64,000 nucleotides of DNA from a virus, in IMG/VR virus record IMGVR_UViG_3300042259_000159. One strand, written 5' to 3'. Positions 1 through 64,000 of the stretch are shown one piece after another (position 1 is the first letter of the stretch; every line of letters starts with the position of its first letter). The notes beneath the pieces were generated by a model, which did not search any database, was not told the origin of the DNA, and saw only the letters and a list, made by a program, of their open reading frames with translations. Made by a program: the position numbers and the translations under genes.

Positions 1-407
1 GTATGGGTGTTAAGTATCAACTCGTTCGCGTGAACAACACCGTTGCGCTTTTTCTGGGCCAATCCGCCGTCGTCCATGTACCAAATGGCGATGTGGATTG
101 CAGACAGCCTGTTCAGGAGTTTCCGGTTGTAGATGTTTTTATAGCCATCTTTGTATAATATCCTTCTCAGTGTTTTACCCCATTTAGTTGTGCTTATATA
201 AGTTCGGTAGCTATCAAATCCGTTATTATTTTTGTAGGTGATGTCAGAGCACTTCACCCCTTCGGAACGTAGATACGCGATTTTCCACAGCAAGTAATCT
301 TTTTGAGCTGCGCAGTGCAGTATCGATCCGCTCCCAGTTTTACCTAAGTGTCCGTCGCCCAAGATGACACTTAGTAATGCAGTTCGTGAACTTCTGTTAA
401 ACTTCAT
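1..407 (-). CDS. LAGLIDADG homing endonuclease (N-terminal part; ORF runs off left edge)
   Basis: Minus-strand ATG at 407..405 preceded by GGAGG. My translation is MKFNRSSRTALLSVILGDGHLGKTG...IHIAIWYMDDGGL, which shows two LAGLIDADG-type motifs. Absent from the ORF track because it is truncated. Confidence 0.7.
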   Translation of the reverse strand, partial: MKFNRSSRTALLSVILGDGHLGKTGSGSILHCAAQKDYLLWKIAYLRSEGVKCSDITYKNNNGFDSYRTYISTTKWGKTLRRILYKDGYKNIYNRKLLNRLSAIHIAIWYMDDGGLAQKKRNGVVHANELILNTH

Positions 408-463
408 GTTAAGCCTCCAAGCACTGTTGTGCTGTTTAAGTCGACATTTAGTCGTTGCACCTT

Positions 464-955
464 CTACCATAAGTAGTTACGGGAGATGTCCTTATAAGAT
501 CTCCGACTACGGATGTCGTCGTAGATATGCTTAGGTATCCCCATAAGGTCTCGAATTTCCTTTGCAGAGTGTCTGCCATCGGCAATCATCTGGCAAATTC
601 TATGCACCTTGTCATCAGGGAGTGTGCTATGTGGACGCTTGCACAACTTGTTCTTGAATGCGTGCTTCCGATTTTCAGATGGCGTCACCCACTCAAGATT
701 GTTCTTGTGGTTATCAATCTTAATCCCATTCTTATGATTGACAACTTTGCCTTCTTCGTAGCCTTGCACATATGTGTAAGCCACAAGTTTATGCACAAAG
801 ATACGAAGAGTCTTTCCTTCAGAGGAGAGGGTTACTCGCTTGTAACCTGTTCTATTAAGGTCAGTGCGCAACACTCTTCCTGTTTCTGAATTTAAGACAA
901 CACCCTCTTCATTAACGAGGTACTTTTCAAAACCTTTTATTGCGACTGGTCTCAC
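464..955 (-). CDS. HNH homing endonuclease
   Basis: Motif NHKNGIKIDNHKNNLEWVTPSENRKHA (HNH_3-like) with a NUMOD4-like N-terminus. GTG start preceded by AAGGAG. Lies inside the putative intron. Confidence 0.8.
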   Translation of the reverse strand: MRPVAIKGFEKYLVNEEGVVLNSETGRVLRTDLNRTGYKRVTLSSEGKTLRIFVHKLVAYTYVQGYEEGKVVNHKNGIKIDNHKNNLEWVTPSENRKHAFKNKLCKRPHSTLPDDKVHRICQMIADGRHSAKEIRDLMGIPKHIYDDIRSRRSYKDISRNYLW

Positions 956-1041
956 ACCTAATCTCCTTATAGTAGCTTGGCTCAGGATTGTCTCTGAGAG
1001 AGTTCCCCTGAATTCACACAGTTTTACGCGGGCATCAATTT

Positions 1042-2010
1042 ACCCGCCCCGAAGTAGAAGGTCTCTCCTAGTCTTCGTCCTCTTGTGGCTTTTGTCAGGC
1101 CAAGCCAAGGCCACGGCCTTCCGTATTCGGGCTTAGTTCTTGCTTTTTCTTTTAAGGTAGAACCCTTGACGATACGGGTGTTCTTTGGGACTACAGTCTT
1201 CCACTTGGTGGCTTGCAGACACTCCGCTACCTTCCCTTCGAGGAGACAGTCATTAACATCCTTACACGGAAGCTCAGCAACATGCCCTCCGGGGAAGATA
1301 CGAACAAACTCTTCTGCTGCTTTCTGACCGGGTTCGTCCATGTCAGGGACGTACACTACCTTCTCAAACAGCTGACGAATCTTGTTTGCATGTTGGAGAA
1401 CAGCCTTCTGCACACTTCCTGCTCCTGAAGGAAGGCTCACAACAGCAGGAATGAGATGTTTGTATTGGGTGTTTGCTACGCTATCCCTGAGCATTTGATA
1501 CAAAGACATTGCATCAATCTCACCTTCGGTGATGTACAGAGTCTTTGCTCCAGCTGTGATAGCTTGTTTCCAACCAAAGAACGAAGCCCCTTTCAAAGAG
1601 CCTATAGCCCACATCCTCTTATCTTTCAGGATTCGTGCTTTATAAGCAGTGAGCTGCCCTCCTTCATCCGTGTAAGGAAAGAATACGATGTCAGGAGTAG
1701 AGCCATCCATAGGTGAGACACCTACTTTGACATTGAAATGCTCAAGGGTTTCTTTCCTCAGCTTTCTTGAAGGAAGAGGATGAGAGAGAAGACTAATTAT
1801 GTGTTTAATTTCTTCGTCTATCTCTTCCTTCGTCTTTTTAGCCACTACAGGAGTGTAGCCTTCAGGTTTGTCCTTATAGGGGTCAGGGACATATTTTCCA
1901 CAAGAGAAACAGTAGCCATCATAGCTGCCATCTTCTTGTAAAAACACTTGTAAACCTGAAGCTGTTCCACAAGAGTGAGGCAATTTTTCTACGCATACTC
2001 CTCGTTTCAT
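1042..2010 (-). CDS. T7 gp4-like DNA primase-helicase, exon 1 (Zn-ribbon plus TOPRIM; helicase domain cut off)
   Basis: Cys cluster HSCG...CFSCGKY, TOPRIM motifs YITEGEIDAMSLYQ and VPDMDEPGQKAA, and the start of a helicase domain (GLTKATRGRRLGETFYFGAG). The track ORF is 1024..2010; the exon end is inferred. Confidence 0.7.
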
Positions 2011-2093
2011 ACCTCCTCCATGTTAGAAGTTAAAGGGGGAATTAACTTCCCCCTATTTATATATACGTCACAGACGAGAGAATGTGACAATTT

Positions 2094-4268: not shown

Positions 4269-5043
4269 GGGGCACTCCCAGATTGTACTTCTTAATAAGA
4301 GCGACTGCCGAATCTACATCCGAAGTGTTGATGATGTTGGTGATGTCTCCCTCTTCCTCAGCCAAGTCTCTTCCTGCAAGCAAGTCAACAACAGCTTGTC
4401 GGGAAGCGGAGAACACCCAACGCATCAGACGCTCTTCTTTAAGCCAAGCATTGGACAGAGTGCGATATTCCATGCCGTAAGGCTTAACACGAAAAGCCCC
4501 TGCCTTCCCGTAGAGTTCTCTCCTTTTGGTGTCCTTGTCGAACAGAAGAGAAGGCAATCCAAGGTAGAAATCCAGCTGCCGTGCAAGCTGACACGAAGCA
4601 AGGAAAGCTCCGAAGTCGTTCACATCATGCTCCATATAGCCGATATGAACATGCCCAGCAGCAGTGCGGAAGTCTCGATTACCGTCAGGAGAAGGGTTGA
4701 TGTCCTGCGTCCACCCATTGTAGTCGGGGTCACACCCCAATTCAAGAGCGGCAGGAGGCTGAGTAGCCATATACTCCTTGCCAAAATGAGCCACAGGCTC
4801 AATGACAATTTCCTCCTTCACCATACGACGAAGCTGAGCGAATACATGCTCAATGTTGCTGACGAAGGTGTTTTCATCAGCTGCCGGCTCAATGTTAAAC
4901 TCAAGAGCCATACCATCCACCTGTACAGCCCCCTTCTCAACAGGGAAAGGGGCTTCCTTAGTCCCGGGAATGAGGCCGTAGCCGGAGATGAACTTCCCAT
5001 TGTCCTTCACAAACAGTTCGGGGTCGGTGCCAATGTATATCAT
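4252..5043 (-). CDS. phiEco32-like COOH-NH2 ligase type 2
   Basis: N-terminus MIYIGTDPELFV, then DGMALEFNIEP and AAGHVHIGY, resembling the phage COOH-NH2 ligase type 2 family. Confidence 0.55.
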   Translation of the reverse strand: MIYIGTDPELFVKDNGKFISGYGLIPGTKEAPFPVEKGAVQVDGMALEFNIEPAADENTFVSNIEHVFAQLRRMVKEEIVIEPVAHFGKEYMATQPPAALELGCDPDYNGWTQDINPSPDGNRDFRTAAGHVHIGYMEHDVNDFGAFLASCQLARQLDFYLGLPSLLFDKDTKRRELYGKAGAFRVKPYGMEYRTLSNAWLKEERLMRWVFSASRQAVVDLLAGRDLAEEEGDITNIINTSDVDSAVALIKKYNLGVPHAVEI

Positions 5044-16069: not shown

Positions 16070-16240
16070 GGTGGTAAAATGATTATCTTATAGGTAACAC
16101 ACCATAAGCCGGTCTATTTAACATAGAAACAAAAACTCTTGGAACAAGAGGGTTAGCTCGGTCCGTTTTCGTTGGCTAGTAAAAGCAACGATAAGCCGAG
16201 AAGCCCCCCACTTCAATTAGACCGCAAGGTCAATAAGTGG
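16070..16240 (+). ncRNA. candidate structured RNA (unclassified)
   Basis: Nested hairpins: CTCTTggaacAAGAG; GCTCGG...[CGTTGgctagtaaaaGCAACG]...CCGAG; CCACTTcaattaGACCgcaaGGTCaataAGTGG with a GNRA loop. No convincing ORF. Confidence 0.3.
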
Positions 16241-16489
16241 TGGGCAGTTCACAAAATTCCTATACAACACGTCACAACCCTACAACACACCATACAAGAG
16301 AATGCTTGCAAGACATGGCAAACTTCTGTCATGTAAACATGTATACATATGACAGGAATTTGAACCAGTGGCGAAGCATGGGTTTTCAGGAAATGCAGCA
16401 AATAATGATGGGGAATGGTATACCACAAAGTATGATACAATCCCTTATGTACGGAACAAGAATTTAAAACCCCCTAGGAGGACAACACA

Positions 16490-16953: not shown

Positions 16954-17502
16954 TCATATCATGCTTGTATCTTTTATAAACCGCCAAGTATATCCAGCAC
17001 TTTTACCCTTTTTGTTTTTGCAGCACTTGGTTATACCCGACCCACTCTTAAGCCCTACCGCTTTTGCAGCCTCCTTATCATCACTAAATATTTTTCCTGT
17101 CTCTAGACATACAATAAACTCCCCCCTTCTCCTCCTTCCATGTATGGTTCTCTGTCTGCGTTGTTCAGCGGTAACAGATTTATGACACGCTTTGCAAAGA
17201 ACCCTTAATTTGCTCTCATCACAAAACATCCTCTCCATTACCTCAGACCAATCCATTTCATAAATAGTCTTCTCAAGAGGTATTACAGGGACAATATGGT
17301 CTACCTCAACACCGGATGCTCCATAGGGCTTTCCACATATACTGCAAATAAAGACCCTCCCCCCTCTCGGTCCACGAAGTGTTGGATGTGTGGCCTTATT
17401 CAGCACATTGCGTACAATGGGCGAGCGCGAAAAAGTTCTCCGCATACAAGACATGATGGCATTGTGTGGTTTCCATGTTTTTTTATCCTTCTTCGTTTTC
17501 AT
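16954..17502 (-). CDS. HNH homing endonuclease with C-terminal NUMOD-like DNA-binding module
   Basis: CSICG...VEVDHIVPV...LRVLCKACH (HNH), and C-terminal GKIFSDDKEAAKAVGLKSGSGITKCCKNKKGKSAGYTWRF. Confidence 0.8.
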   Translation of the reverse strand: MKTKKDKKTWKPHNAIMSCMRRTFSRSPIVRNVLNKATHPTLRGPRGGRVFICSICGKPYGASGVEVDHIVPVIPLEKTIYEMDWSEVMERMFCDESKLRVLCKACHKSVTAEQRRQRTIHGRRRRGEFIVCLETGKIFSDDKEAAKAVGLKSGSGITKCCKNKKGKSAGYTWRFIKDTSMI

Positions 17503-40418: not shown

Positions 40419-41269
40419 GACTCCACGGAATCAAGCAAACTTGGCTGCTTATTTCTACGGCTAATAGCCTCGGCGTCTAGCCGCTTAGCGATTATCTCGC
40501 AGTACTTTTCTTCGCGCTCTATCAGGATCCAGCGGCGGCTAGCACGCTCGGCTGCAACTGCTGTTGTGCCGCTGCCCGCGCAGAAATCAAGCACTGTTTC
40601 ACCTTCGTTGGTGTAGGTTTTGATGAGGTATTCCATTAGGGCAACAGGTTTTTGGGTTGGATGGAGTGCTTCAGAGTCTTGGCTAAATTTAATAACACCG
40701 CGAGGGTAGTTTGTAAATTCTTGTTTATAGCTTTCAGATTTGGTCAGATCATTATGTACACTTGTCCTATCCCCATTCTCTTTTAGAGAATCCTTCCGTG
40801 TCTTTGTCCCCGTGTTTTTTACCACCTTGTCCACCTTTACAAGCCCCTGCGCGTTATAAGTTGGCTGCTTGCGGTAGAATACAAGCACGTCCTCAAATCC
40901 TTTTAGCGGCATCCTTTTGGCATTGGGGAAATTTGTTGGACGACCTTTCTCCCAGACCCATGTGTATTTAAGCATTTTGAGATTACTAGCCCCCAAAAGA
41001 CTTGTAAACGGCTGGCTAGCAGTCATAACAACAGCCCCACTAGGCTTGATAGCCCGCTTCAACTGCTCCCACATTGGCTCTAGCGGAATAATGCTATCCC
41101 ACTTACACGCCGTCATTCCAATTCAGCCGTAGGGTGGATCGCATAACACCAGGTCTATAGAGCCGTCTGGGATATATTTCATAACCTCAAGACAATCTCC
41201 ATGAACCAACGTGTTAGGCAATACGCACCCTACGTGCTGTATCTCCTTTTCGTTAGTTATAGTAAACAT
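40415..41269 (-). pseudogene. N6/N4 DNA methyltransferase (beta class) with an in-frame TGA after DPPYG
   Basis: ATG 41269 ... VLCDPPYG-TGA(41125..41123)-IGMTACKWD ... HPTQKP ... FCAGSGTT, all in one frame. The track ORF 40415..41116 is the downstream part. Confidence 0.7.
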
Positions 41270-41811
41270 TAAATAAAATACTCCTGTATGTTTAGTTTCA
41301 AATTATTCCAATCTGTTTGTGTCATATCATTTTTGCACCTATTTTCAAACCACGACAAAAACTGCAAGTTTTCTATGTCATTAGTTCCTCCTTTTGCTTT
41401 TGGTGTTATGTGGTCTATTGATGGCTTTTTGTATTTTTCTTTACCGCCGCTAACCCATCTTTCATAAATCCTATTAAATTGATCGTCATAGTAAAACCTA
41501 CTTATATAACTTTTGTACCATTCAGTTGATATGTCCCATCTGCCTGAACGATTCGTAATTACATCATTTAACAGCTTTAATTTATCAAAATCCTTAAACT
41601 GCATTAACCAATCAGTCGTTACGTCAAACCTCAAGTGTGTTGCCATGTTGTTATAATTGCGCTCAATATCACAATTAAATTTTTTAACACCTCTTAGATT
41701 CTTGGGCTTTCTGGTCTGTACCCCATTTCTCTTCAGGATTCTTGATATTAGTTTGTGATTAGTACCTAGCTTATCCGCTATAGAGCGCATTGAATCGCCA
41801 CTTTTGTACAA
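41269..41811 (-). CDS. HNH endonuclease with N-terminal HTH
   Basis: SIDHITPKAKGGTNDIENLQFLSWFENRCKND. Its stop overlaps the methyltransferase ATG (TAATG). Confidence 0.75.
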   Translation of the reverse strand: MYKSGDSMRSIADKLGTNHKLISRILKRNGVQTRKPKNLRGVKKFNCDIERNYNNMATHLRFDVTTDWLMQFKDFDKLKLLNDVITNRSGRWDISTEWYKSYISRFYYDDQFNRIYERWVSGGKEKYKKPSIDHITPKAKGGTNDIENLQFLSWFENRCKNDMTQTDWNNLKLNIQEYFI

Positions 41812-41816: not shown

Positions 41817-42218
41817 CTAATGGATAAATAGGTAATCCCCAATCTCCTCGGGGCGTTTAGCATTTTTTACCTGCTCATTATAAGGAAGAACCAAGAGTTC
41901 ACCAACAGCATCCCTTTTGGATACAGGCAGTTTTTCTTCCAGCCGTTTTTGCATAGACTCGGAGTCCATTCCCATCAACAGCTCAAAAATCTCCAAATCT
42001 TTTAGACGATTATCGGTGGCAGGTAGAAGCGATCCAAGTATACAGGCTTTATTGAGTATCAGGGGTTTGCGCCCTTTCCAGTAACTGCCAAGAGCGGTCA
42101 ATGTTTTGCTCTGAACAGCGCTCTGTTCTTTAAAACTTTCAGCGGATATTTTTTGCACTGGAAAGAGATGTTCAATCAGTGCCGGTTTATCTTTCCATTC
42201 GAACGGTTTCAGTGCCAT
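41817..42218 (-). CDS. DUF1156-like N-terminal fragment (domain normally at the N-terminus of large DNA methylases)
   Basis: From MALKPFEWKDK: LIEHLFPVQKISAESFKEQ...YWKGRKPLILNKACILGSLLP resembles DUF1156. Only about 133 aa; it ends 5 nt before the HNH gene. Confidence 0.4.
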   Translation of the reverse strand: MALKPFEWKDKPALIEHLFPVQKISAESFKEQSAVQSKTLTALGSYWKGRKPLILNKACILGSLLPATDNRLKDLEIFELLMGMDSESMQKRLEEKLPVSKRDAVGELLVLPYNEQVKNAKRPEEIGDYLFIH

Positions 42219-48848: not shown

Positions 48849-51800
48849 CTAAATGCTTTTATCTACAAACTTTCTCTGTGGAAAATCAAATTCCCGCCTT
48901 GTTTTATTCCAAGCTTTTACGGGTGTAAAAAACCCAACAACCCTTGTCAGCTGTGTACTTATATCTTCCGAACATATGGGGCATGTACTGAAGGAACCCA
49001 TAGAGACATGGGAGTTGATACACTCAGAGTATACGGTATTAATGGCAAAATGTTCACATCCACAACCCAAAGCAAAACAGATAATTTTCTTGGCCTGCTC
49101 TCTTGTCAGCCTCTGCCCGACAGTGGCATGAACAATCCCCCCGCCTGTTAGGTTTTTAGTATATTCTCCGTCAATTCTGAGCCTGTCCCACAGAGATGCC
49201 TCTTCCCACAAAGGAACAAACTGGTTTGCATAGAGAGGGTATTCTATAAAAGTATCGCCGTGAATGATCTTATCTGCGCTGCAAACTTTTACAGCCATAC
49301 TCTCTGCTGGGATTTGCTCAATGTTGAAGACATATCCTGCGTTCTTCTTGGTATACAATCTAGCTTTTCTGTTAAGAAATGTCAAGATCTTTTTCTTCAA
49401 ATCCCCCTCAACACCGAACCTTTGTTTAAGAACCTTTTCACACTCGTAAAGACCAAGAATACCAAACGTTGAAAAGAGCCTGTTGAGGTCTATCCACCCA
49501 CGCGTTATAAAAGGCTGAAGACCTATTTGTTCAAGGACATGAATCAAGACCTTATGAGCAATCAGAATATCTTTAGCAGCCTCTACACGGTACGTGTATA
49601 TTTTCCAAAAATCATCAATACTCTCGGCCTCAATTGCCATCTTGTTGAAATTAAGAGTAACAACTCTATGGCTCCCGATGCTGGAAAGAACACCGGCACC
49701 GAAAGAATTGGAGGTGGATGCCACATCTAACATCTCTTCATCATTGATCAATCGGCAACAGCTAGCGATCTTTGTGCTCTCAGATGTGAAAATATTGTAG
49801 CGCGAAATGTCTCTATTAAGAAATATTTCCAAACTCTCTTCGTCTGCAAGGATGTAATCATCGCCGTCCTTAGTTTTTGAAATGTTCATCGTGCAAACAG
49901 GGAACCTGTAAGGCATCCCGTTATTTGAGGGATCTCCTTTATCAAAGATGTCTAGGAATATTTCCTGCAATTCAAAAACATAGTCAACACACTCTTCTAT
50001 ATCTACAACACCACCATCTGAAAACATCCACAAAAGATGTTCCTTTATGATGTACCTGAGTTTGTGTTTATCAAACACCGATACATTGGTAAAGGGACTC
50101 TCAACTCCGTCACGACTCAAATGGTTTACGCTGTGAATAAGCTGTTGAAACTCGTTTTCTATCTCTTTCCTCACAGCCTTATCGTTTTTAAGCACATCAA
50201 GGGGAACCTTATTCTTTATCATGAGAAGGTGAGCAACATCTATAAATACAGTACCTATGGCTAGAGCACCAGCAACATGCGATGACATTTGGTGGATTGT
50301 CTCACACAGGGCGGCAATATAACTATTAACTCTTTTTGCCGGTTTAGAGGGCAATACTCCAAAAGTTCTTCCTTCTGTAATGAGATTTGTTGCGTTTAAA
50401 GAATAACAATTATGTTGCACCATTCCGTTTGCATAAAAACGGCCCGTTGCTGTTGTCAAATCATATACGTCTTGAAGCTCCTCTCTAAGCTTTCTTGTAC
50501 TAGGAATGTCTTCAAGATTAAACCTGATGATTTTTACAACCCTGTTGCTTTCGCCCTTGGTGTTTGCTTTTTCATTATACTTATCATAGTCTTCTTTATG
50601 CATCTTCATCTTATCAGAAAGATCAACCATCTTATTCGTACTTGACGGGACAAAGGAAAGGGCATAAATCGAATTAGAAATATCACTCCCTTTTATCCTT
50701 TTTCTAAGGCATCGAATACCTTCAATGCCTCTAAGGACGTCATAAAGTGTGTTTATTACTGCCATAGACTGCAAACAAATCTCCACCCTGCCATTCTTTT
50801 TGTAGGTATATCCGTCCGCGTCTACAAGCCCCGCAACAAGTGCCTCTACAGAATCATTTGTCCAAGAGAGGATGTTCTTAGGAAGAACCTTTGTGAAGCT
50901 ATTTTCTTTGTTCCCGAAACCAAAAAAGGCACTTACAAGAAAATTCATATCATAAGAAGACCAATTAATCTGTCTCTCGACTTTATCACTGGGCTTAAAA
51001 AGATTCGCATCAGGAAACAAGTCTTTTATGATACTATAAATTCTTGAGTTATCAATATCGTTTTGATAAACACTGCAAAGCGTTCCCCCTCTTGTAAATC
51101 TGAAAGAGCCTTTTATGTCCTTACCGTTCATTACGCCATCATCAACACAATACCCTTCAAAGTTCCCATCACCAAGCATAAAGCCAAGAAGGTAGGCCAG
51201 CTTTTCTGGAACAATTATTGTTTTTTCCACGGAGGGCAAACAAGTCTCTGTCAAAACAGCATCCCCAACAGAAAGTTCTGAGGCTATTTTTTCAGTTCCA
51301 TCTTCCATATAGATTGGGTGGTTGTCTGTTACCAAAGCAAAGTGCCCTGCCTCTGTCTGATACAAAGAGAATCCTGTATCCGTTTTATGCTTGATAATAC
51401 GTTGTACAGCAACCCATCCATTGTTTGTATCCCAAACCTCTATATTAACTTTTTCACTCACATTGCAGGCCAACTTACCGGAACGACCTTTTGCGGTGTT
51501 CTTGTTAGTGATGTTCGCACTCACATTATTACGCAGCATTGCTGTTGTAATCTCTAGATCTCTTGTAAGGCCTTTTGTGTTAATTTCCTCATGCGTACCC
51601 CTATTTTCGGAGTGTATTGCAAACATATTGAAAAGCTTTTTAAGAGGAATACAAATAATCTCTCCGTTAATTCTGACAAAAACAGGCGTGTTTCCATAAT
51701 ACGAATATGGAAGGTTTAGCTTCGTGCTGTCGGAGATGGGAAGACTGAAATCCAACATTTCTCCTATAAGCCTTTTAGCCCTCTTCTTGCCGTAGAGTTC

Positions 51801-52184
51801 CTTCATAACACGGTAGAGGAAATCGTACCCTGCAATTTTTTTCTGGGGGGCACTTGCCTCACTCTGTATTCCGGCAATTGTCTTCTCATTCTTATTAGCA
51901 TTGTCATCAATAGAGACATCATTAATGTTTGCATTTAATTGTTTTTGAAACATCTTGAGAAAGTCTGTATTGTCCTGCGAAAGACCATGCAGACGCATAA
52001 GTTTTTCAGCTTTTGTATCAATCTCTTCTTGAGAAAGGGTTGTTTTACGAGAAAGATTCCTTTTCAAAGCCTTAAGCATCTGTTTCCGTGTGTATTCAAT
52101 CTCAGCATCATTTGTAAAAGATGAAGAAAAACCTTTAGCTATGCTATTCAAAGCAGTAAACTCCTTCTTTTGTAAGTTTAACAT
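48849..52184 (-). CDS. nrdD: anaerobic ribonucleoside-triphosphate reductase (class III), intein-containing
   Basis: C-terminal CPICS Zn site and glycyl-radical region TRVVGFFTPVKAWN. Likely start MLNLQKKEF at 52184, overlapping the nrdG 3' end. A 432-aa insert carries intein blocks. Confidence 0.8.
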   Translation of the reverse strand: MLNLQKKEFTALNSIAKGFSSSFTNDAEIEYTRKQMLKALKRNLSRKTTLSQEEIDTKAEKLMRLHGLSQDNTDFLKMFQKQLNANINDVSIDDNANKNEKTIAGIQSEASAPQKKIAGYDFLYRVMKELYGKKRAKRLIGEMLDFSLPISDSTKLNLPYSYYGNTPVFVRINGEIICIPLKKLFNMFAIHSENRGTHEEINTKGLTRDLEITTAMLRNNVSANITNKNTAKGRSGKLACNVSEKVNIEVWDTNNGWVAVQRIIKHKTDTGFSLYQTEAGHFALVTDNHPIYMEDGTEKIASELSVGDAVLTETCLPSVEKTIIVPEKLAYLLGFMLGDGNFEGYCVDDGVMNGKDIKGSFRFTRGGTLCSVYQNDIDNSRIYSIIKDLFPDANLFKPSDKVERQINWSSYDMNFLVSAFFGFGNKENSFTKVLPKNILSWTNDSVEALVAGLVDADGYTYKKNGRVEICLQSMAVINTLYDVLRGIEGIRCLRKRIKGSDISNSIYALSFVPSSTNKMVDLSDKMKMHKEDYDKYNEKANTKGESNRVVKIIRFNLEDIPSTRKLREELQDVYDLTTATGRFYANGMVQHNCYSLNATNLITEGRTFGVLPSKPAKRVNSYIAALCETIHQMSSHVAGALAIGTVFIDVAHLLMIKNKVPLDVLKNDKAVRKEIENEFQQLIHSVNHLSRDGVESPFTNVSVFDKHKLRYIIKEHLLWMFSDGGVVDIEECVDYVFELQEIFLDIFDKGDPSNNGMPYRFPVCTMNISKTKDGDDYILADEESLEIFLNRDISRYNIFTSESTKIASCCRLINDEEMLDVASTSNSFGAGVLSSIGSHRVVTLNFNKMAIEAESIDDFWKIYTYRVEAAKDILIAHKVLIHVLEQIGLQPFITRGWIDLNRLFSTFGILGLYECEKVLKQRFGVEGDLKKKILTFLNRKARLYTKKNAGYVFNIEQIPAESMAVKVCSADKIIHGDTFIEYPLYANQFVPLWEEASLWDRLRIDGEYTKNLTGGGIVHATVGQRLTREQAKKIICFALGCGCEHFAINTVYSECINSHVSMGSFSTCPICSEDISTQLTRVVGFFTPVKAWNKTRREFDFPQRKFVDKSI
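50409..51704 (-). mobile_element. intein with LAGLIDADG homing endonuclease domain inside NrdD
   Basis: Block A SYYGNTPVFV (Ser1), block B LVTDNHPIY, LAGLIDADG motifs LAYLLGFMLGDGNF and LVAGLVDADGYTY, C-terminal FYANGMVQHN followed by extein Cys (CYSLN). Confidence 0.8.
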
Positions 52185-54658: not shown

Positions 54659-55108
54659 TTACTTATCTCTCTGGTAGTAGTGCTTTGATATTGCACTTCT
54701 TTCCATTTTTTGAATTTTTTTATTCTGAACGTCGGACCCATAACGTCCAGAACACGTTCTGGAACAAAAGGGCCCAGCTTTATTTTTAATGTTTCTCTGT
54801 GTCACCGTTGGCGTAAAAAGAGAATCGCAATATGGACACTTTACTTCTTCCACTCTCACCCTTACCACATCAAGCGAAGCATGGGAGGATCTACACAAAA
54901 CTTGTAAATTTTCAATTTTGTTGTTCAGTGGATTTCTATCAATGTGGTCAACTGTCTCAGATGGATCTAAAACTCTGCCCAGATGCACTTCCATTATAAT
55001 TCTGGAAGCCTGTTTAGCAGTTCTTTTAATTCCATCATATAAAACAATGACCAGTCTACCGTCTTTCCTTAAATATGGCCCATAAATTTTTTTACACTCT
55101 GGGTACAA
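54659..55108 (-). CDS. HNH homing endonuclease
   Basis: VDHIDRNPLNNKIENLQVLCRSSHA plus C-terminal CPYC...CSRTC. The track ORF extends to 55192 but overlaps tRNA-Leu; a TTG at 55108 is proposed as the start. Confidence 0.65.
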   Translation of the reverse strand: MYPECKKIYGPYLRKDGRLVIVLYDGIKRTAKQASRIIMEVHLGRVLDPSETVDHIDRNPLNNKIENLQVLCRSSHASLDVVRVRVEEVKCPYCDSLFTPTVTQRNIKNKAGPFCSRTCSGRYGSDVQNKKIQKMERSAISKHYYQRDK

Positions 55109-55122: not shown

Positions 55123-55206
55123 TGGTAGGAGAAGAGAGATTCGAACTCTCAAGGAATAATCCGTCGAGGCTTAAACTCGATGTGTTTACCATTTCACCAT
55201 TCTCCC
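55123..55206 (-). tRNA. tRNA-Leu (anticodon UAA), type II with long variable arm, CCA encoded
   Basis: GGGAGAA/TTCTCCT acceptor, anticodon arm TCGAG-TTTAAGC-CTCGA, T-arm GAGAG-TTCGAAT-CTCTC. Confidence 0.75.
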
Positions 55207-55245
55207 GTATTTTTTATCTACCATTCCGCCATTCCCGCATTTATT

Positions 55246-55323
55246 TGGTACCCACTGTGAGATTCGAACCCACACTAATCAGTTTCTAAGACTGATGCCT
55301 CTGCCAAGTTGGGCTATACCAGT
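55246..55323 (-). tRNA. chimeric / possibly defective tRNA (anticodon UAG, short variable loop)
   Basis: Good D, anticodon (TCAGT-CTTAGAA-ACTGA) and T arms. However, 5' acceptor ACTGGTA pairs poorly with the local 3' strand AGTGGGT and well with TGCCAGT at 54617..54646. Confidence 0.45.
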
Positions 55324-55581
55324 ATTATGCTTATTATTTTATTTTGAAAGGCCATATGTATACACATATATATATATACATATATATATGTATAGAGCAA
55401 CCAAAATGGTTAAATAAAAAGGTGTTTTGTGGAGACACCAAACTCCTCCAGTTTTAGTGATCTGGAAACAATAAGCGGCGCAGGTGCTCTTTAAAACACG
55501 TGCTACCAAGCGTATAAATTGTCTAGGGGATTTCACCAAACACATTATGTTATTGGAGGGATCTTTCCCTAGACTCAGTAA

Positions 55582-55654
55582 AGCTCCTGACAGGACTTGA
55601 ACCCGCAACCGGCTGATTACAAATCAGCTGCTCTGCCAGTTGAGCTACAGGAGC
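55582..55654 (-). tRNA. tRNA-Thr (anticodon UGU), no encoded CCA
   Basis: GCTCCTG/CAGGAGC acceptor, GCTGA-TTTGTAA-TCAGC. Confidence 0.8.
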
Positions 55655-55658
55655 AGAA

Positions 55659-55730
55659 CAGAGGGAGAAGGATTCGAACCTTCGAATGACGGGACCAAAA
55701 CCCGTTGCCTTACCGCTTGGCTACCCCTCT
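55659..55730 (-). tRNA. tRNA-Gln (anticodon UUG), no encoded CCA
   Basis: ACGGG-TTTTGGT-CCCGT anticodon arm, T-arm GAAGG-TTCGAAT-CCTTC. Confidence 0.75.
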
Positions 55731-55738
55731 AAATTTTT

Positions 55739-55815
55739 TGGCTCCGGCGGCAGGATTTGAACCTACATTCGCAATGGTTAACAGCCATTTGCCTTACCAA
55801 TTCGGCGACACCGGA
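55739..55815 (-). tRNA. tRNA-Asn (anticodon GUU), CCA encoded
   Basis: AATGG-CTGTTAA-CCATT, TTCAAAT T-loop, acceptor TCCGGTG/CGCCGGA. Confidence 0.75.
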
Positions 55816-55860
55816 ATGAACTTTTTATTTGTTATCAGCATTGTTTTGCTTTATTTTAAA

Positions 55861-55939
55861 TGGTCTCGGTGATTAGATTTGAACTAATGATTATTCCTGC
55901 TCCCAAAGCAGGTGCCATACCAAGCTAGGCGACACCGAG
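55861..55939 (-). tRNA. tRNA-Pro (anticodon UGG), CCA encoded
   Basis: CCTGC-TTTGGGA-GCAGG, T-arm ATTAG-TTCAAAT-CTAAT, acceptor CTCGGTG/CACCGAG. The variable region is slightly long. Confidence 0.65.
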
Positions 55940-56519: not shown

Positions 56520-56790
56520 TGTTGATACCTTATAGGTTCAGCCCTACCAAGGGCACTGCGGCTTAAGTGGGTTGGTTGGTGCAGATTGTGAACGTACCCC
56601 CGCCTATAGAGGCGGAAGCTTCCTGCTTCAGCGAGAACAGCACCAGTAACTCCGAAGAGTTGTGGCGAATTACACTCTCTCCACAGGCGTAAATTCCCGT
56701 GCGACCCACGGTACTTTATGAGTTACGCTAGGCAGATATTCGCCCAGCTTCTTCTCTAATATTTATTGCAGCGTTCTTGTCACGGTTATG
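56520..56790 (-). ncRNA. expected TnpB omega-RNA (reRNA) region
   Basis: Located by position at the 3' end of tnpB plus downstream sequence. Hairpins CCGTGGGTCGCACGG, ACTCttcgGAGT and CCGCCtctataGGCGGGGG are present; the exact ends are unknown. Confidence 0.3.
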
Positions 56791-57976
56791 ATGACTGCCA
56801 CACTTAAGGCAATCCCATTCCCGCACAGACAAGTCTTTGGTATCCTTGTTCTGGTAGCCACAGACATGGCATAGCTGACTGCTTGGATACCATTTGTCTA
56901 TCTTGATAAGTTGCTTACCCTGCCATGCAAGTTTGTATTTCAGCATACTTGTGAACATGCTCCAGCCGTTGTCGGATATGGATTTACCAAAGTTGAACTT
57001 GCCACCCTTCTTTCGCTTCGCCATGTCCTTTACGCTAATGTCCTCTATGCCAATCACATCATAGCGGTCTGCAAGATAACGAGCTTTCTTATGCAGGAAG
57101 TCGCGGCGTTGATTAGCAATTTTCTCATGGAGTACAGCCAAACGTAGTCTTTGTTTATTCCTATTACGGCTCCCTTTTTGTCTCTTGGAGAGTTTTCTTT
57201 GTGCCTTGATCAATCTCTTTTCGGCTTCCCGTAAGAAATTTGGATAATCGGCGTTGTCCTCATCGGAAGCAACATACATCCCGTGCATAGCAAAATCCAA
57301 TCCAAGAAAATTCTTCGGTATGATGGGAAGTATTTGGTTTTCATACTCCACCAAAATACTAATATAGTATTTTCCTGACGGTGTTTTACTTATGGTTACA
57401 GTCTTTATGGTGCTATTCTCCATCAATGGACGATGCAGACACAGCTTTACCCAACCTATTTTCGGCAGCTTGACTTTGTTTCCCTCGATTCTTACAGAGC
57501 CATGTTGGTTGTTCGTAGAATATGAAGCATGACCCGCTTTCTTCGACTTGAAGCGTGGCTTGCAAAAATGCTTCCTATTGCTCCAAAAGTTGTTATACGC
57601 CTTGTTCAGGTTTATTTGGGCATTGGCGAGAGCAAGGCTGTCAACCTCTTTCAGCCAAGGAAACTCTTTCTTGTACTGTGCAGGTGTGTTGTTCAGCCTC
57701 TCTCCTGTTTCCTTATAGTGATCAAGACGATCTCCAAGCATCTTGTTATAGATGAATCTGGCACTGCCGAAAGTCTTGGCAAACATAATCTTCTGTTCAA
57801 TTGTCGGGTAGAGTCTATATCGGTATGCCTTATTCACTATAATCACCTGCCTTGATTTTCTATGTATTTACGAATTGTCTCAAACGGAGCAATTATCTGG
57901 CTCAACTACTTACGTAAATTCGCTAGACACACCTTCATCCCCCACCTTAGAGGTGGAGGGCTTCTGGCGGGTTAGG
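56560..57976 (-). mobile_element. IS200/IS605-family TnpB-only element (boundaries approximate)
   Basis: tnpB is flanked by similar subterminal hairpins: LE CCCTCCACCtctaaGGTGGGGG (57939-57960) and RE CCGCCtctataGGCGGGGG (56597-56614). No tnpA is present. Confidence 0.55.
56728..57846 (-). CDS. tnpB: TnpB (OrfB_IS605) RNA-guided nuclease
   Basis: N-terminus AYRYRLYPTIEQKIMFAKTFGSARFIYN. RuvC-like GLDFAM / IGIEDISVKDM / RDKNAAINI. Zn-ribbon CHVCGY...CLKCGSHHNRD. Confidence 0.9.
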   Translation of the reverse strand: MIIVNKAYRYRLYPTIEQKIMFAKTFGSARFIYNKMLGDRLDHYKETGERLNNTPAQYKKEFPWLKEVDSLALANAQINLNKAYNNFWSNRKHFCKPRFKSKKAGHASYSTNNQHGSVRIEGNKVKLPKIGWVKLCLHRPLMENSTIKTVTISKTPSGKYYISILVEYENQILPIIPKNFLGLDFAMHGMYVASDEDNADYPNFLREAEKRLIKAQRKLSKRQKGSRNRNKQRLRLAVLHEKIANQRRDFLHKKARYLADRYDVIGIEDISVKDMAKRKKGGKFNFGKSISDNGWSMFTSMLKYKLAWQGKQLIKIDKWYPSSQLCHVCGYQNKDTKDLSVREWDCLKCGSHHNRDKNAAINIREEAGRISA

Positions 57977-58013
57977 TTAAATCCCTTGTGTCTACTAATT
58001 CCACCAATCGGGC
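57977..58013 (-). pseudogene. truncated tRNA-Leu(UAA) 5' half ending at the anticodon (..AAGGGATTTAA)
   Basis: GCCCGATTGGTGGAATTAGTAGACACAAGGGATTTAA, then unrelated sequence (the IS left end). It duplicates the 5' half and upstream spacer of the tRNA at 58023..58109. Confidence 0.7.
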
Positions 58014-58022
58014 TAAAATCTT

Positions 58023-58109
58023 TGGTGCCCAATGCAGGACTCGAACCTGCACGCCATTTCAGGCAGGAGGGCTTAAACCTCGTGTGTCTACCAATTCCAC
58101 CAATCGGGC
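58023..58109 (-). tRNA. tRNA-Leu (anticodon UAA), type II, CCA encoded
   Basis: Close to E. coli leuZ-type layout: GCCCGAT..GTGGAATTGGTAGACAC..TTTAAGC..TGCAGGTTCGAGTCCTGCATTGGGCACCA. Confidence 0.8.
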
Positions 58110-58118
58110 TAAAATCTT

Positions 58119-58202
58119 TGGTGCCTCAGACAGGATTCGAACCTGCACGGATCTCTCCACTTGGTCCTAAGCCAAGCGTGTCTGCCATTCCACCACTGAG
58201 GC
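58119..58202 (-). tRNA. tRNA-Leu (anticodon UAG), type II, CCA encoded
   Basis: GCCTCAG acceptor, CTTGG-CTTAGGA-CCAAG, long variable arm, GCAGGTTCGAATCCTGT. Confidence 0.8.
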
Positions 58203-59107: not shown

Positions 59108-59281
59108 TATGCGGCCTTATTCGTCATCTCTATACACCTCCACTTGCTCATGTGATTGTCGGAAACTTTCGGCAACTTTTTCGGCGACATCTTTTGTCAT
59201 TAGGCCAGTCCTATACCACTCTCCGGCTTGTTCGTTAATCCATCTCCAGTATTTCACTCGATAATTAACATTTTTTGGCAT
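59108..59281 (-). CDS. hypothetical protein (57 aa)
   Basis: ATG after GGAGGAG; below the track cut-off. Confidence 0.35.
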
Positions 59282-59284
59282 TGT

Positions 59285-59551
59285 CTATCTCCTCCGCAAG
59301 TTGCGCTCTCTGGTCAAGCCACCATTTTTTTCTGACACGTCTTTGTCTCTTTCAATCGTGTAGAGAAGGTTTTCGGATTTGTCTATCAATTCCTGTAATT
59401 GATGATATATTTTCCGGTATTCGTCGTGCGAAATATCCAAAAGTTCCCGCATTCCGTCTCTGGTATTCTTAAACAACAAGCAATCTGCATCACCACGAGA
59501 AAGGCCAAGGTTTGCTTCCATATAATTAAACGGGCAAACAGGCTTTTTCAT
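59285..59551 (-). CDS. hypothetical protein
   Basis: ORF track; ATGA overlap with the upstream gene. Confidence 0.45.
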   Translation of the reverse strand: MKKPVCPFNYMEANLGLSRGDADCLLFKNTRDGMRELLDISHDEYRKIYHQLQELIDKSENLLYTIERDKDVSEKNGGLTRERNLRRR

Positions 59552-59808
59552 GTTGTCTCCTTTATTTCTTCAATAAGTGTTTCCAGGTCTGAACACTCCT
59601 GCTCAAGTGCCTTGTGCAGTGCTTTATTCTCATGAGCACCTTGCATTTCCGAGTACAGCCGCCCGAGCAACGATGCTTCCAAGTATGGCAAAACCCTTTT
59701 CAACAGTTCACCTCGCAACAAATTTTCAGTAACCTGCTTTTCTTGGTGGTTCTTCATCAGGCAAGAACCGCAAATAATATTCTCGCTGTGGTTACAGGAC
59801 GTTATCAT
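59548..59808 (-). CDS. hypothetical protein
   Basis: ORF track; overlap-coupled. Confidence 0.45.
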   Translation of the reverse strand: MITSCNHSENIICGSCLMKNHQEKQVTENLLRGELLKRVLPYLEASLLGRLYSEMQGAHENKALHKALEQECSDLETLIEEIKETT

Positions 59809-60713: not shown

Positions 60714-61423
60714 TTAGATAGTAAACAGTTTTTCAACACCTTTCTTGCTTCCCGTGTTCTTTGTCAGGCTGCTTACAATTTCTTTTTTCCAAATGCAAGT
60801 AAAATCTTCTGGAGCATTATATTCTGAAACAAACACCTTATGTCCCTCATTAGCCTTATCTCTGCACCACTGCCAAAACAACTCATGGTCAAAATCATTA
60901 GAGTACTTTGTTGTCCCTGAATAGGGCGGATCACAGTAGATTAAGCTGTTACTGGGGATATGTAGCTCATCATAAGGACAACACAAAAATTCTACATTTT
61001 GAATTAGCGAGGACTGTTTTATTGCTGATTGCTTACTACGTTTTGTTTGTATTATCATGTTTTCAATATCACCTTTTGTTCCTGCTTTGTCCCGCCTATA
61101 CCCCCCAAAAAATTTACCACCAAAAGACATTGAAAATGCTGTAAATCCAGTTAAACCATCAATATTTTTGTGTTTTTTCATTGAATTGTACATATCTTCT
61201 GTAATAATTTCAGGAATACTTTTTGGTGCATCGCGTATAAGTTTTAATGCTTCTATTACATACGGGCTGCAATGGCGGCCCCAATACGATTCCCATCAAC
61301 CTTATCAATCATGTTTCCACCTCCAACAAACGGTTCAACCCACCACTGGTCAGGTTTTCTTTCTGCAAGCATAATTGGGAGGATATACTTTGCTATTCTG
61401 TTTTTACTTCCCATGTATTTCAT
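60714..61423 (-). pseudogene. Dam-like (D12 class) N6-adenine methyltransferase split by a frameshift
   Basis: N-part MKYMGSKNRIAKYILP...WVEPFVGGGN (61256..61423). C-part ...SPYVIEALKLIRD...LIYCDPPYSGTTKY (60714..approx 61250) lies in another frame. The switch is near 61250-61265. Confidence 0.65.
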
Positions 61424-61772
61424 ACTTACCTCCTGTTTTTGTTTTAGTTGTAAGGTGCTTTTACCTGTCAATATCAAACTACCCCTATTCCCCCTGTTTG
61501 TCAATACCTTATTCTTATCTAAACATAAGATATATATATTATATATATATTCTTTATATAATATAAATATATATACTTTATATATAGTATATTTATATAA
61601 TATATATATGTATATAATATATATACTCCTACTCACTACGAGACACATACATAATATATACATTAACCCTTCCTGCAAAGGAAGCCGTAGGATACCATAA
61701 AAAAGAGATTTTGTCAAGCATTATTTTAAGAAATGTTAAAAATAATTTCCTAACCTAATCTCTATTTTTTAC

Positions 61773-62219: not shown

Positions 62220-62540
62220 ATGGCTAGGCCGAAAGGTACAACAAAAGAGGTTCTTATGAACAGGAAGCTTCTTGCACAACTAGACATTATCAAAGAGAAG
62301 GTGTCTGATGATGTTGTAGAGGCTTATGAAACACTGGCCTTCTTGATGAGGGATAAGGCATCCTCTTCAAGTGTAAGAAAGGGTTCAGCGGAACAAATCA
62401 TTGGTCTCCACAAATCTTTTTGCAAGGAAGCAAGCGGTGATGTTGAGGATGTAGAGGAGGTAATGGAAGACGGTAGGACTTCTGGCGGGGGTATGGGTAA
62501 AATACTCAGCCTGAAAATGGTAGGAGGAGGCAATGACTAA
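62220..62540 (+). CDS. putative terminase small subunit
   Basis: Inferred only from its position directly upstream of terL and overlapping it (ATGACTAA). Confidence 0.35.
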   Translation: MARPKGTTKEVLMNRKLLAQLDIIKEKVSDDVVEAYETLAFLMRDKASSSSVRKGSAEQIIGLHKSFCKEASGDVEDVEEVMEDGRTSGGGMGKILSLKMVGGGND

Positions 62541-62604
62541 ACTCGCACCTGCATCAAGAAAGCAAGAAATGATGCTGGGTGCTGATGCCCAAATGACGGT
62601 AATT
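62533..62604 (+). CDS. terL: terminase large subunit, exon 1
   Basis: MTKLAPASRKQEMMLGADAQMTVI. A stop follows 2 codons later unless the transcript is spliced. Confidence 0.55.
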
Positions 62605-63082
62605 GGTAGATAACTGCCCTGTACACAGGAAACTGTGTATGTGTATCTCATTAAAACGGGGAACCCTAAGTGTACACGCATAAGGGAATCCCGTGACTAC
62701 GCAAGCCGAAAAAGGAGTAGGCATGAAAAATTTAGGATTTATGGGTTTTGATAAGTGTGCGGATATGTTCTGACCTAGAGAAGGGTTTTTCATGCTCTTC
62801 TACTGTAAGGAGGAATAAGGTTGGAACAAGCACGGTACATAGGATCTATAGAAGAAAAACGCATACTTCCATATCTAAGAATTTTTCTTGGGAGTAGTTG
62901 TAACGACTAGTTCATAAGAACGTAAGACACAAGTAGTCCTTAAGTGCAAGGACAAGGTGTTTGAAACATGAGACACTCTAACAAGTAATGTTGAGGGTGA
63001 AGAGATAGTCTGAACTGTATAGAAATATACAGCAGGAGAACATTTTAATGTTTTTCCGGCAGATGCCTTACGAACATCTGTG
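62605..63082 (+). ncRNA. group I intron 1 in terL (ORF-less, approx 478 nt)
   Basis: Core GTAACGACTAGTTC...GAAGAGATAGTCTGA, hairpin CTGTATAgaaaTATACAG, terminal CAGATG..CATCTG hairpin, ends in G. Confidence 0.6.
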
Positions 63083-63368
63083 AACATTTTGGGTGCCGCA
63101 GGTTCGGGAAAGTCATACATAATGAATATGATACCTTTGAGGTATGTCGATTGCCCCAACTTTAGGGGGATTGTCTTCCGAAGGGAAACGACACAGCTTA
63201 CAGGTGAAGGGGGGATGTGGGATACAGCAACGGAGATATACTCTGAGCTGCCTAAAAATATCAGGCCCAAAATATTGAAACATAACCTGAGAATGATTTT
63301 TCCGAATGGGGCAAAAATTAAGTTTTCACACATGGAAAATGATAATGATTTCAGGAAACATCAAGGGT
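63083..63368 (+). CDS. terL: terminase large subunit, exon 2 (Walker A)
   Basis: NILGAAGSGKSYIMN...GIVFRRETTQL...KFSHMENDNDFRKHQG. Confidence 0.7.
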
Positions 63369-63622
63369 TAATTAGTAGCCCCTTGTGTTGGTGACAGCGC
63401 AAGCAAACTAACCTAATTCGGTGGAAGCCCAAACATGTAGGATGTGGGTGATACCGAGCAAGCCACGGCGTGTGTAACGACTAGTTCTTAGGAACGTAGG
63501 CCCAAGCGGGTCGAAACGGTTAGCATCTTATTAAGATGAAGATATAGTCTACTCTGCATGGAAACATGCAGCGGACACTTTATGTGTCGGGCAGATGTTA
63601 GCGCCATCTGTTGAATATTATG
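63369..63622 (+). ncRNA. group I intron 2 in terL (ORF-less, approx 254 nt)
   Basis: GTAACGACTAGTTC...GAAGATATAGTCTAC (compare canonical AGATATAGTC), CTGCATGgaaaCATGCAG, CAGATG..CATCTG. U before the 5' junction and G before the 3' junction. Confidence 0.65.
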
Positions 63623-63739
63623 TACAATATACCCTGATATGCTTTGATGAGGCAACACATTTCACTTTCCAACAAGTTGAATACTTAATGTCACGTATGA
63701 GAAGTAAAAGTAAGTATGCTTCTCGTATGGTTCTGTCGT
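63623..63739 (+). CDS. terL: terminase large subunit, exon 3 (Walker B)
   Basis: (L)QYTLICFDEATHFTFQQVEYLMSRMRSKSKYASRMVLS; the 3' end is approximate. Confidence 0.65.
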
Positions 63740-64000
63740 GGATTACGCGACATGTATGGCGAAAGCTGTACTGGCAACTGTGTGAACTCAGGGAAACCTT
63801 AGCTGCTGCAATTGGGCAGAGGAAGAAGGCAATCCTGAGCGAAGCCTTCCCACCGGGAAGGAACGTGCAACGACCATCGAAAGCGTAACACCTGTTACAG
63901 TGAGTAGAGTACACCACACATGTGTGGTGGAAGCGCACAGCCCCTAACATGTAACGATGAGGGTGAAGATATGGTCTGAACCTACAGAAATGTAGAAAAA
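63740..64000 (+). ncRNA. group I intron 3 in terL (runs off right edge)
   Basis: CAACGACCATCG...GAAGATATGGTCTGA, with GACCA/TGGTC replacing the GACTA/TAGTC of introns 1 and 2. Hairpin CCTACAgaaaTGTAG(G). Confidence 0.55.

Follow-up and report, generated by a model that had tools for sequence, protein, structure and literature searches.

The 64,000-nucleotide (nt) stretch of viral DNA analysed here (IMG/VR virus record IMGVR_UViG_3300042259_000159; 'the window' below means this whole stretch) carries group I introns, an intein, intron-encoded and free-standing endonuclease genes, and a TnpB element, several of them placed inside the primase-helicase, nrdD and terL genes. The window (G+C content 42%) originates from a large uncultured tailed phage with a genome of at least about 117 kb, since a 91.6-kb and a 25.7-kb contig from one sample meet near 59.5 kb. 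Elements were called using Pfam, PHROG and PDB for proteins, Rfam for introns, and ARAGORN together with Rfam for tRNAs. The listed elements covered about 6.4 kb (about 10% of the window), and six endonuclease reading frames were present per 64 kb, one of these being the LAGLIDADG domain of the intein. A preliminary description of the window had counted about four group I introns (one in a primase-helicase gene and at least three in terL), one intein in nrdD, three free-standing HNH genes (at 16954, 41269 and 54659), HNH and LAGLIDADG genes inside one intron, and one TnpB element. These calls survived re-annotation, with Rfam matches for the introns and with HNH open reading frames (ORFs) that were not parts of larger proteins, and the points at which they had to be corrected are given with the respective elements. 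At the left edge of the window, the following features were resolved:

1042..2010, minus strand: exon 1 of a primase-helicase gene (T7 gp4-like; Pfam Toprim_2), ending ...GETFYFGAG in the Walker A motif
1..1041, minus strand, last 326 nt past the left edge: group I intron of the primase-helicase gene, 1367 nt in full (splice sites, partial Rfam matches)
464..955, minus strand: intron-encoded HNH endonuclease gene (163 amino acids (aa)), in the P6/P6a loop (Pfam HNH_3 and NUMOD4; phrog_59, E 7e-35)
1..407, minus strand: intron-encoded LAGLIDADG endonuclease gene (199 aa, the first 135 codons of which lie in the window; LAGLIDADG_2; phrog_11023, E 1.4e-17)

The 326 nt beyond the left edge were taken from locus L002. 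In the primase-helicase intron, the 5' splice site lies after GGGCGGGU, with a U.G pair formed with the guide GCCCGC (GCGGGU/GCCCGC), and the 3' splice site reads ...ACACAUG|GUCAAAAUGGGAAAAUCU. Splicing at these positions gives FGAG|VKMGKSEVV, a full Walker A motif, and residues 4-554 of the spliced protein (554 aa) aligned in one tblastn piece with homologues of 50-57% identity (L049 and L050). Rfam matched the 5' half and a 3' piece of the intron with 20.6 and 18.2 bits, respectively, below the gathering score for group I introns (50 bits), and with E values of 0.26 in a 26-kb search and 0.014 on locus L002. Because of this low score (20.6 bits, E 0.26) the covariance model alone was insufficient, and the intron was established by its splice sites, the restored Walker A motif, the uninterrupted homologues and a natural intron-less allele described below. 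While the presence of an intron in a primase-helicase gene thus stood, the identity of the gene had to be corrected: the Toprim/DnaB gene at 21051-22685 (plus strand) is intact and was ruled out as intron host, the host being its paralogue at 1042-2010 (minus strand), with which it shares just 22% identity.

A single J6/7-P7 motif (AACGACTA) and a single J8/7-P7' motif (GATATAGTC) were found in the primase-helicase intron, which therefore has one ribozyme core. On the 3' side of the HNH ORF the J6/7-P7 element GUGCAACGACUA is followed by the LAGLIDADG ORF, which sits directly 3' of the P7 5' strand and is itself followed by P7.1, P7.2, the P3 3' strand (CGCACAG), P8, GAUGAUAUAGUC, P9 and P9.2. 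When the intron without its ORFs was analysed with RNAalifold together with five sister introns of the same genome, P3, P4/P5, P7.1, P7.2, P8, P9 and P9.2 were recovered, with compensatory changes in 31 of 49 pairs. In this structure P3 pairs a strand upstream of the HNH gene with a strand downstream of the LAGLIDADG gene; as the pairing spans both ORFs, the element is one ribozyme with two endonuclease genes and not two introns. In the minimum-free-energy fold of the ORF-less intron P3 was mispaired, because the core contains a pseudoknot. That the LAGLIDADG ORF occupies a P7.2 loop, with UUGGAG/CUCCGA as the closing pairs, was ruled out, as both RNAalifold and an HNH-only allele (see below) put the cassette between P7 and P7.1. 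Both endonuclease ORFs are intact and each has a ribosome-binding site (AAGGAG for the HNH ORF). Residues 6-98 of the HNH protein matched the I-HmuI structure 1U3E (E 8e-16), and the LAGLIDADG protein is 52% identical to a LAGLIDADG protein encoded in an intron of the portal gene.

Relatives were found by a metagenome scan with primase-helicase exon 2, and three of them were informative for the occupation of the intron site:

L129 (96-97% nucleotide identity): intron precisely absent (..GGGGCCGGC|ACTAAGATGGGA..)
L130 (Ga0194137_10006897; 96-98% nucleotide identity): intron with the HNH gene alone
L131 (53-69% amino-acid identity): site occupied by an intron whose HNH gene is 82% identical

At the empty site of L129, five substitutions were located within the surrounding 12 nt. 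The allele of L130 is devoid of a 639-nt LAGLIDADG cassette, which in the window's phage is flanked by GACTA repeats. In addition, L130 carries a second group I intron with an HNH gene in its helicase (1433-2222, at ..AGSRAMMR|SCNYMIG..), a site that is empty in the window, and the HNH protein of this second intron is 39% identical to that of the first. From these alleles we infer the order no intron, HNH intron, HNH plus LAGLIDADG intron: an HNH-bearing mobile intron would have entered the primase-helicase gene, and a second invasion, by the LAGLIDADG cassette, would have followed later. More tentatively, the cassette (639 nt, with leader hairpin, ribosome-binding site and GACTA flanks) may be independently mobile and may target one structural position, 3' of P7, in different introns of this lineage, among them one that already houses an HNH nickase gene. 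In that case the competition among endonuclease genes would be over introns and not over host genes, and the terL introns, which have no ORF, would possibly be mobilised in trans by free-standing HNH genes. If so, the population would hold a living series of endonuclease stacking and replacement, from empty site to HNH intron to HNH plus LAGLIDADG intron.

The right end of the window is occupied by the interrupted gene for the large terminase subunit:

62533-62607, plus strand: terL exon 1 (MTKLAPASRKQEMMLGADAQMTVIG), aligning with the N-terminus of the TerL of Erwinia phage Hena1; 5' splice site after 62604 or 62607
62605/62608-63091, plus strand: terL group I intron 1 (about 484 nt; Rfam 39.2 bits and exon colinearity)
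63092-63368, plus strand: terL exon 2 (Walker A GAAGSGKS ... HQG; Pfam Terminase_6N positions 1-94)
63369-63622, plus strand: terL group I intron 2 (254 nt, without ORF; Rfam 76.1 bits)
63623-63739, plus strand: terL exon 3 (Walker B ICFDEATHF ... SRMVLS; Hena1 alignment, coordinates checked)
63740-64023, plus strand, the final 23 nt lying outside the window: group I intron 3 of terL (284 nt; Rfam 77.5 bits)

Exon limits were set by aligning the uninterrupted TerL of Hena1 to the DNA and then checking the coordinates, because Rfam intron boundaries are only approximate. For intron 1 (E 1.6e-7 to 2e-8, with the 3' half alone aligned and a score below gathering) the Hena1 alignment ruled out the Rfam end at 63032 as splice site, with 'GEHFNVFPADALRTSVNIL' as exon, and moved the end to 63091, exon colinearity giving a 3' splice site of ...CAUUUUG|GGUGCC. 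About 100 nt of this intron are absent in the 97% variants L012 and L013. The junction of intron 1 (AQMTVIG|GAAGSGKS) falls in the Walker A motif of terL, that of intron 2 (HQG-L-QYTLICFDE) immediately ahead of Walker B, and at that of intron 3 (SRMVLS-C-NPDPD) splicing rebuilds a conserved Cys codon across the U.G 5' splice site, the 3' end of this intron reading ...AAUCG|. A fourth terL intron (95.9 bits, junction LLRG|NWYARP) lies beyond the window in locus L003, which belongs to the same genome (100% identity); introns 2 and 4 have a terminal G, and the exon preceding each ends in U. The spliced TerL (499 aa) aligned with that of Hena1 in one tblastn piece (query 4-495, 48% identity), with per-exon alignments meeting at the junctions, and it covered 99% of a 497-aa TerL of 65% identity (P0121); in more distant relatives (44-57%) terL is uninterrupted.

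Two further group I introns lie in the portal gene, 3-4 kb past the right edge (L003 6918-7858 and 8075-8440), so that four terL and two portal introns are found within 5 kb and the genome has at least seven introns in total. The first portal intron encodes a LAGLIDADG protein and is precisely missing from the 97-99% identical contigs L012 and L013, in which the empty site is marked by a cluster of four synonymous changes. The second is without an ORF in this genome and contains, in L012 and L013, an HNH ORF about 720 nt long. While the introns are overall 48-66% identical to each other, a 52-nt P5-P6-J6/7 segment is 100% identical between terL intron 3 (63827-63878) and terL intron 4 (L003 5280-5331), and 96% identical in portal intron 5 (L003 6994-7040). 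Set against the low overall identity, the identical 52-nt segment suggests patchy recombination between intron copies.

The intein resides in the gene for the anaerobic ribonucleotide reductase:

48849..52184, minus strand: nrdD, 1111 aa with intein (Pfam NRDD, E 2e-67)
50409..51704, minus strand: NrdD intein (432 aa), with Ser1, a TDNH motif as block B and a pair of LAGLIDADG motifs, its last residues being ...VQHN ahead of Cys+1

The motifs identified were SYYGNT at Ser1, LLGFMLGDGNF and VAGLVDADGYT as LAGLIDADG motifs, and ..LPY|CYS.. at the insertion site. The intein call of the preliminary description was upheld by these splicing motifs and by alignment around the element: the Thermotoga maritima NrdD (4COI) aligned to query residues 73-167 and 604-1121, flanking the 432-aa insert, and the extein-only NrdD aligned in one piece with intein-less phage NrdDs. 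The intein C-terminus resembles that of the Neq split intein, with a weak match to the C-fragment (E 0.012), and LAGLIDADG_3 of Pfam scored 17.5 on the intein (cut-off 22.5). Among relatives, the NrdD P0001, the exteins of which are 98% identical, is without the window's intein, the site reading ..LNLPYCYSLNAT.. unbroken, and has instead an unrelated 338-aa intein at an ASC|C site; both differences were confirmed at the DNA level in its contig L209 (ENA ERZ15185563). P0042, with exteins of 52% identity, has a homologous intein, 42% identical, inserted at the site used in the window, and no nrdD usable for intein comparison was found in the ThyX-based loci. Judging from the motifs, the intein would excise by protein splicing and its LAGLIDADG domain would mediate homing.

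Three free-standing HNH genes were confirmed by Pfam and PHROG matches and as separate ORFs, by ORF boundaries and independent gene calls; one of them adjoins a methylase gene fragment, which is listed along with them:

16954..17502, minus strand: HNH1 (182 aa), last gene of a leftward operon (PHROG HNH families, E 1.3e-12)
41269..41811, minus strand: HNH2 (173-180 aa; helix-turn-helix and HNH), Pfam HNH (27 bits) and HTH_38 (PHROG, E 1.8e-12)
41820..42218, minus strand: 5' fragment of a DUF1156 DNA methylase gene (133 aa; Pfam DUF1156), stopping where HNH2 begins
54659..55108, minus strand: HNH3 (149 aa), beginning 15 nt past the last tRNA gene (Pfam HNH_3, 38.5 bits; PHROG, E 3.2e-20)

HNH1 scored 21.5 bits with Pfam HNH (cut-off 21.4) and by eye shows a CxxC...DH...CxxCH motif and an IENR1/NUMOD1-like C-terminal tail. 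The best PHROG match of HNH2 was phrog_1035, 'endonuclease VII' (E 1.8e-12), and its best HNH-named match phrog_6050 (E 5.3e-07); it was called as a separate gene in other assemblies, and its frame differs from that of the upstream DUF1156 fragment. The gene call of HNH3 was likewise taken from other assemblies. The three genes most likely encode intron-less homing endonucleases like mob and seg of T4.

HNH2 marks a gene-replacement breakpoint, as the similarity to L209 stops exactly at this gene and a different methylase gene then follows. The DUF1156 methylase of L209 has 781 aa, residues 1-133 of which match the fragment in the window at 77% identity, ending ...LFIH. A location of HNH2 in an intron splitting the methylase gene was ruled out: no covariance match or core motif was found, and the relative shows that DUF1156 is truncated. 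The beta-class N6/N4 DNA methylase gene on the far side of HNH2 (40415-41268, minus strand) has an in-frame TGA (at about 41121-41123) right after DPPYG, which is also present in an independent Logan contig. An alternative genetic code was ruled out, TGA terminating 4 of 34 confident genes, and as TGA is thus a normal stop elsewhere, the gene is probably a pseudogene or contains a read-through site. A D12 (Dam-like) methylase gene (60714-61420, minus strand) is split into two ORFs, with profile positions 39-124 gone, and an (AT)n-rich tract lies just upstream of it (61510-61625). L209 has an extra MT-A70 methylase gene (4312-4857) between dUTPase-like and DsbA-like genes, and, where the window has its PAPS-reductase and methylase block, other genes, differences that imply mosaic exchange of DNA-modification genes.

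The TnpB element lies within the tRNA array, and a solo right end of the same insertion sequence (IS) family was found elsewhere in the window:

56728..57846, minus strand: tnpB (372 aa; Pfam HTH_OrfB_IS605, OrfB_IS605 and Cas12f1-like_TNB, E 5e-19 to 8e-26)
56590..56745, minus strand: ωRNA-like structured tail overlapping the tnpB 3' end, aligned with the right end of the Bacillus phage BSP12 element and ending ...GTTCAC
57846..57944, minus strand: about 33 aa of a tnpA C-terminus, left as a relic (E 7e-4 in tblastn with residues 105-131 of BSP12 TnpA)
16100..16252, plus strand: solo IS605-family right end (ωRNA-scaffold-like; folding z-score -4.3), ending GTTCAC like the window's own element
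55123..55939, minus strand: tRNA genes for Pro, Asn, Gln, Thr, Leu(tag, atypical, 69 nt) and Leu(taa) (ARAGORN, Rfam)
57974..58013, minus strand: third tRNA-Leu(taa)-like gene, truncated to its 5' half (sequence reading and tRNA alignment)
58023..58202, minus strand: tRNA-Leu(tag) and tRNA-Leu(taa) genes (ARAGORN, Rfam)

TnpB is 50% identical to that of BSP12, and the tail matched RAGATH-18 weakly (27 bits, gathering score 44.9), with a folding z-score of -2.6. The call of a TnpB element thus held for tnpB itself, with its three Pfam domains, and was amended in two respects: with just a relic left of TnpA and no left end seen, the element is a decayed IS605-type element and not an autonomous transposon, and the solo right end has to be added to it. 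At best, TnpB and its putative guide RNA could serve as an RNA-guided nuclease that attacks genomes without the insertion. At the solo right end, identity to the sequence directly 3' of BSP12 tnpB is 94%, and no TnpB remnant was found near it; this identity points to probable exchange with phages of Bacillus-like hosts. The truncated tRNA-Leu half stands directly after tRNA-Leu(taa), ends near the anticodon loop and lies about 30 nt upstream of the tnpA relic, and it seems that insertion or decay of the IS destroyed a tRNA gene. A 28-nt exact inverted copy of the tnpB stop/ωRNA start (56717-56744) is located at 30610-30637, just after an ORF at 30051-30608. A 48-nt segment (56205-56252, minus strand), situated between TnpB tail and tRNA-Pro and preceded by a promoter-like TTGACA, matched positions 1097-1144 of the model for bacterial 23S rRNA with 26.7 bits (E 5e-5 when 10 kb were searched) and by eye resembles the hairpin of the GTPase-associated centre (GCAGCCAUC.UUUAAAGA).

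Altogether, we consider it probable (about 0.85) that core genes of this phage have been colonised by classical self-splicing and homing elements working in known ways. The IA2-like group I introns, located at codons for conserved ATPase motifs, would leave the mRNA by self-splicing, and for all four introns in the window removal restores proteins colinear with uninterrupted homologues. Presence or absence, or the cargo carried, differs among 96-99% identical contigs at three loci (primase-helicase intron, NrdD intein and portal introns), and this turnover, seen as intron-less and HNH-only primase-helicase alleles and as NrdD without the window's intein, is what the preliminary description had proposed to look for in close relatives. 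Its statement that the elements sit preferentially in essential genes and the tRNA cluster holds for the intron and intein sites, HNH3 and TnpB, and does not hold for HNH2, which lies at a gene-replacement boundary.

Several observations weigh against this interpretation. Splicing and endonuclease activity are predictions, two of the four introns in the window score below Rfam gathering, and the intein stays under the Pfam Intein_splicing cut-off (30.3 against 35.8). For HNH1, HNH3 and TnpB no allele with an empty site was found, nor any informative relative for HNH3, and HNH1 is kept in the sole available 97% variant (L031). Among the relatives searched, no intron-less terL was found above 65% identity; terL introns 1-3 are without an endonuclease gene and occur in every near-identical (97-100%) contig sampled, and their current mobility is therefore putative only. 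The IS has lost TnpA save for the relic, and no left end was recognised.

Some of these observations agree with a different explanation, in which most elements are fossils: real but immobile passengers, kept since imprecise loss would destroy essential genes, with the density reflecting past invasions. Besides the ORF-less terL introns fixed in all 97-100% identical contigs, an IS without TnpA and probably without its left end, together with the solo right end at 16.1 kb, would fit this explanation, as would the broken methylase genes in the neighbourhood. We regard it as rather unlikely, given the differences in presence and cargo at the three loci among 96-99% identical contigs, the intact intron endonuclease ORFs with their ribosome-binding sites, and the substitutions clustered at empty sites. 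The elements could also be functional rather than selfish, with introns as GTP-sensing 'on-switches' that time replication and packaging enzymes, a switch hypothesis put forward for Bastillevirinae introns (PMC11878797), and with HNH proteins as ordinary phage nucleases in packaging, host DNA degradation or anti-defence; terminase-adjacent HNH proteins are known packaging factors (PMC3592412), and the terL introns are conserved among close strains. This is improbable, however, as none of the three HNH genes adjoins terS or terL, primase-helicase and NrdD work without these elements in 96-98% identical relatives, and an uninterrupted TerL is the rule in relatives. A chimeric origin of the window, with DNA of several phages fused where intron sequences recur and the density inflated as a result, is highly improbable despite the identical 52-nt segments of the intron copies and one JGI assembly (70 kb) with coordinates irreconcilable with a simple circle holding the whole window, as internally every element agrees with its host gene and independent JGI, IMG/VR and Logan contigs match the window at 100% identity where they overlap it (both window ends, 8067-29104, 38635-49351 and 42665-59584) and extend it on both sides.

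With colonisation by classical mobile elements as the preferred explanation, the mechanisms and target preferences are well known, and the window is a good natural system rather than a case of a new mechanism. The suitability for homing studies suggested earlier was thus borne out by occupied, empty and differently loaded alleles in close relatives: one lineage gives matched occupied and empty alleles at primase-helicase, nrdD and portal in public metagenomes, and a stepwise series in which an HNH-carrying intron gains a second, unrelated endonuclease gene. Such matched natural alleles make the endonuclease life cycle, competition and co-conversion tracts testable with natural substrates, within the limit that phage and host are uncultured.

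Bacteriophage T4 carries three introns of group I and 12 free-standing seg/mob genes, with segB in the tRNA cluster. Its 15 homing endonuclease genes in 169 kb, making up 11% of the coding potential, have been termed an oddity (PMC2988022), and the element density of the window is similar (about 10% of the window as compared to 11% of T4 coding potential). The density, first called exceptional, is so in relative terms only: it equals that of T4, and multi-intron terL genes are known in Bastillevirinae. Shared with T4 are also insertions in nucleotide-metabolism genes including nrdD, and an endonuclease gene in the tRNA array, HNH3 at the array end resembling T4 segB (PMC2988022). The phage analysed here differs from T4 in belonging to another lineage, in having introns in terL, portal and primase-helicase (those of T4 are in td, nrdB and nrdD), in having an intein rather than an intron in nrdD, and in the presence of a TnpB element, and no GIY-YIG genes were found in it, unlike in T4.

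In Bastillevirinae, terL has up to three introns and one genome has six (PMC11878797), so the at least seven introns found here, four in terL and two in the portal gene, are at or slightly above published extremes. As in Bastillevirinae/Herelleviridae (SIOphi, phiNIT1 and phiAGATE; PMC11878797), the introns are IA2-like, those of the former being located in terL, DNA polymerase and ribonucleotide reductase genes, and the cargo families phrog_59 (HNH plus NUMOD4) and phrog_11023 (LAGLIDADG) are common to both. These two families pair together in the DNA polymerase intervening sequence of phiNIT1 (PMC11878797), in which our own motif check found single P7 and single P7' motifs; compared to phiNIT1, the two-endonuclease intron here is in primase-helicase and has the endonuclease gene order reversed. 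Four introns in terL plus two in portal, as found here, are unmentioned in the Bastillevirinae survey (PMC11878797), and the phage is, unlike the Bastillevirinae, not a herellevirus by its TerL. The HNH protein of the primase-helicase intron is, like I-HmuI (1U3E, an HNH nicking endonuclease from the intron in the SPO1 DNA polymerase gene), intron-encoded in a replication gene, whereas its C-terminal DNA-binding part and target gene differ and nicking is putative here. The element containing tnpB shares the TnpB domain set and the structured 3' tail ending GTTCAC with the BSP12 IS, and differs from IS200/IS605 elements in that TnpA is a 33-aa relic and no left end was recognised. Nuclease genes are known at boundaries of genetic exchange between phages (PMC10448857), and the position of HNH2, exactly where the DUF1156 methylase gives way to another methylase cassette, is a single case resembling such boundaries.

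No close relative of the window was found by megablast among 50,697 phage records, and the spliced TerL is about 48% identical to that of rV5-like Vequintavirinae. The gene repertoire is that of a large virulent tailed phage: replication genes in the window comprise two primase-helicases (one with the intron), DNA polymerase A, a FEN-like exonuclease and a ligase, and the window also encodes ThyX, NrdD/NrdG, a CCA-adding enzyme, several DNA methylases and an amidoligase/GATase cluster, in addition to eight tRNA genes and the beginning of the packaging module. A perfect 91-nt direct repeat (33287-33377 and 37861-37951, 4.5 kb apart) is located among small function-unknown ORFs. Between oppositely oriented gene blocks, an AT-rich region of about 940 nt (38900-39840) contains no ORF and has short tandem and inverted repeats; a promoter close to the consensus (TTGACA...TATTAT) lies there at about 39444, and the region is a possible origin or control region.

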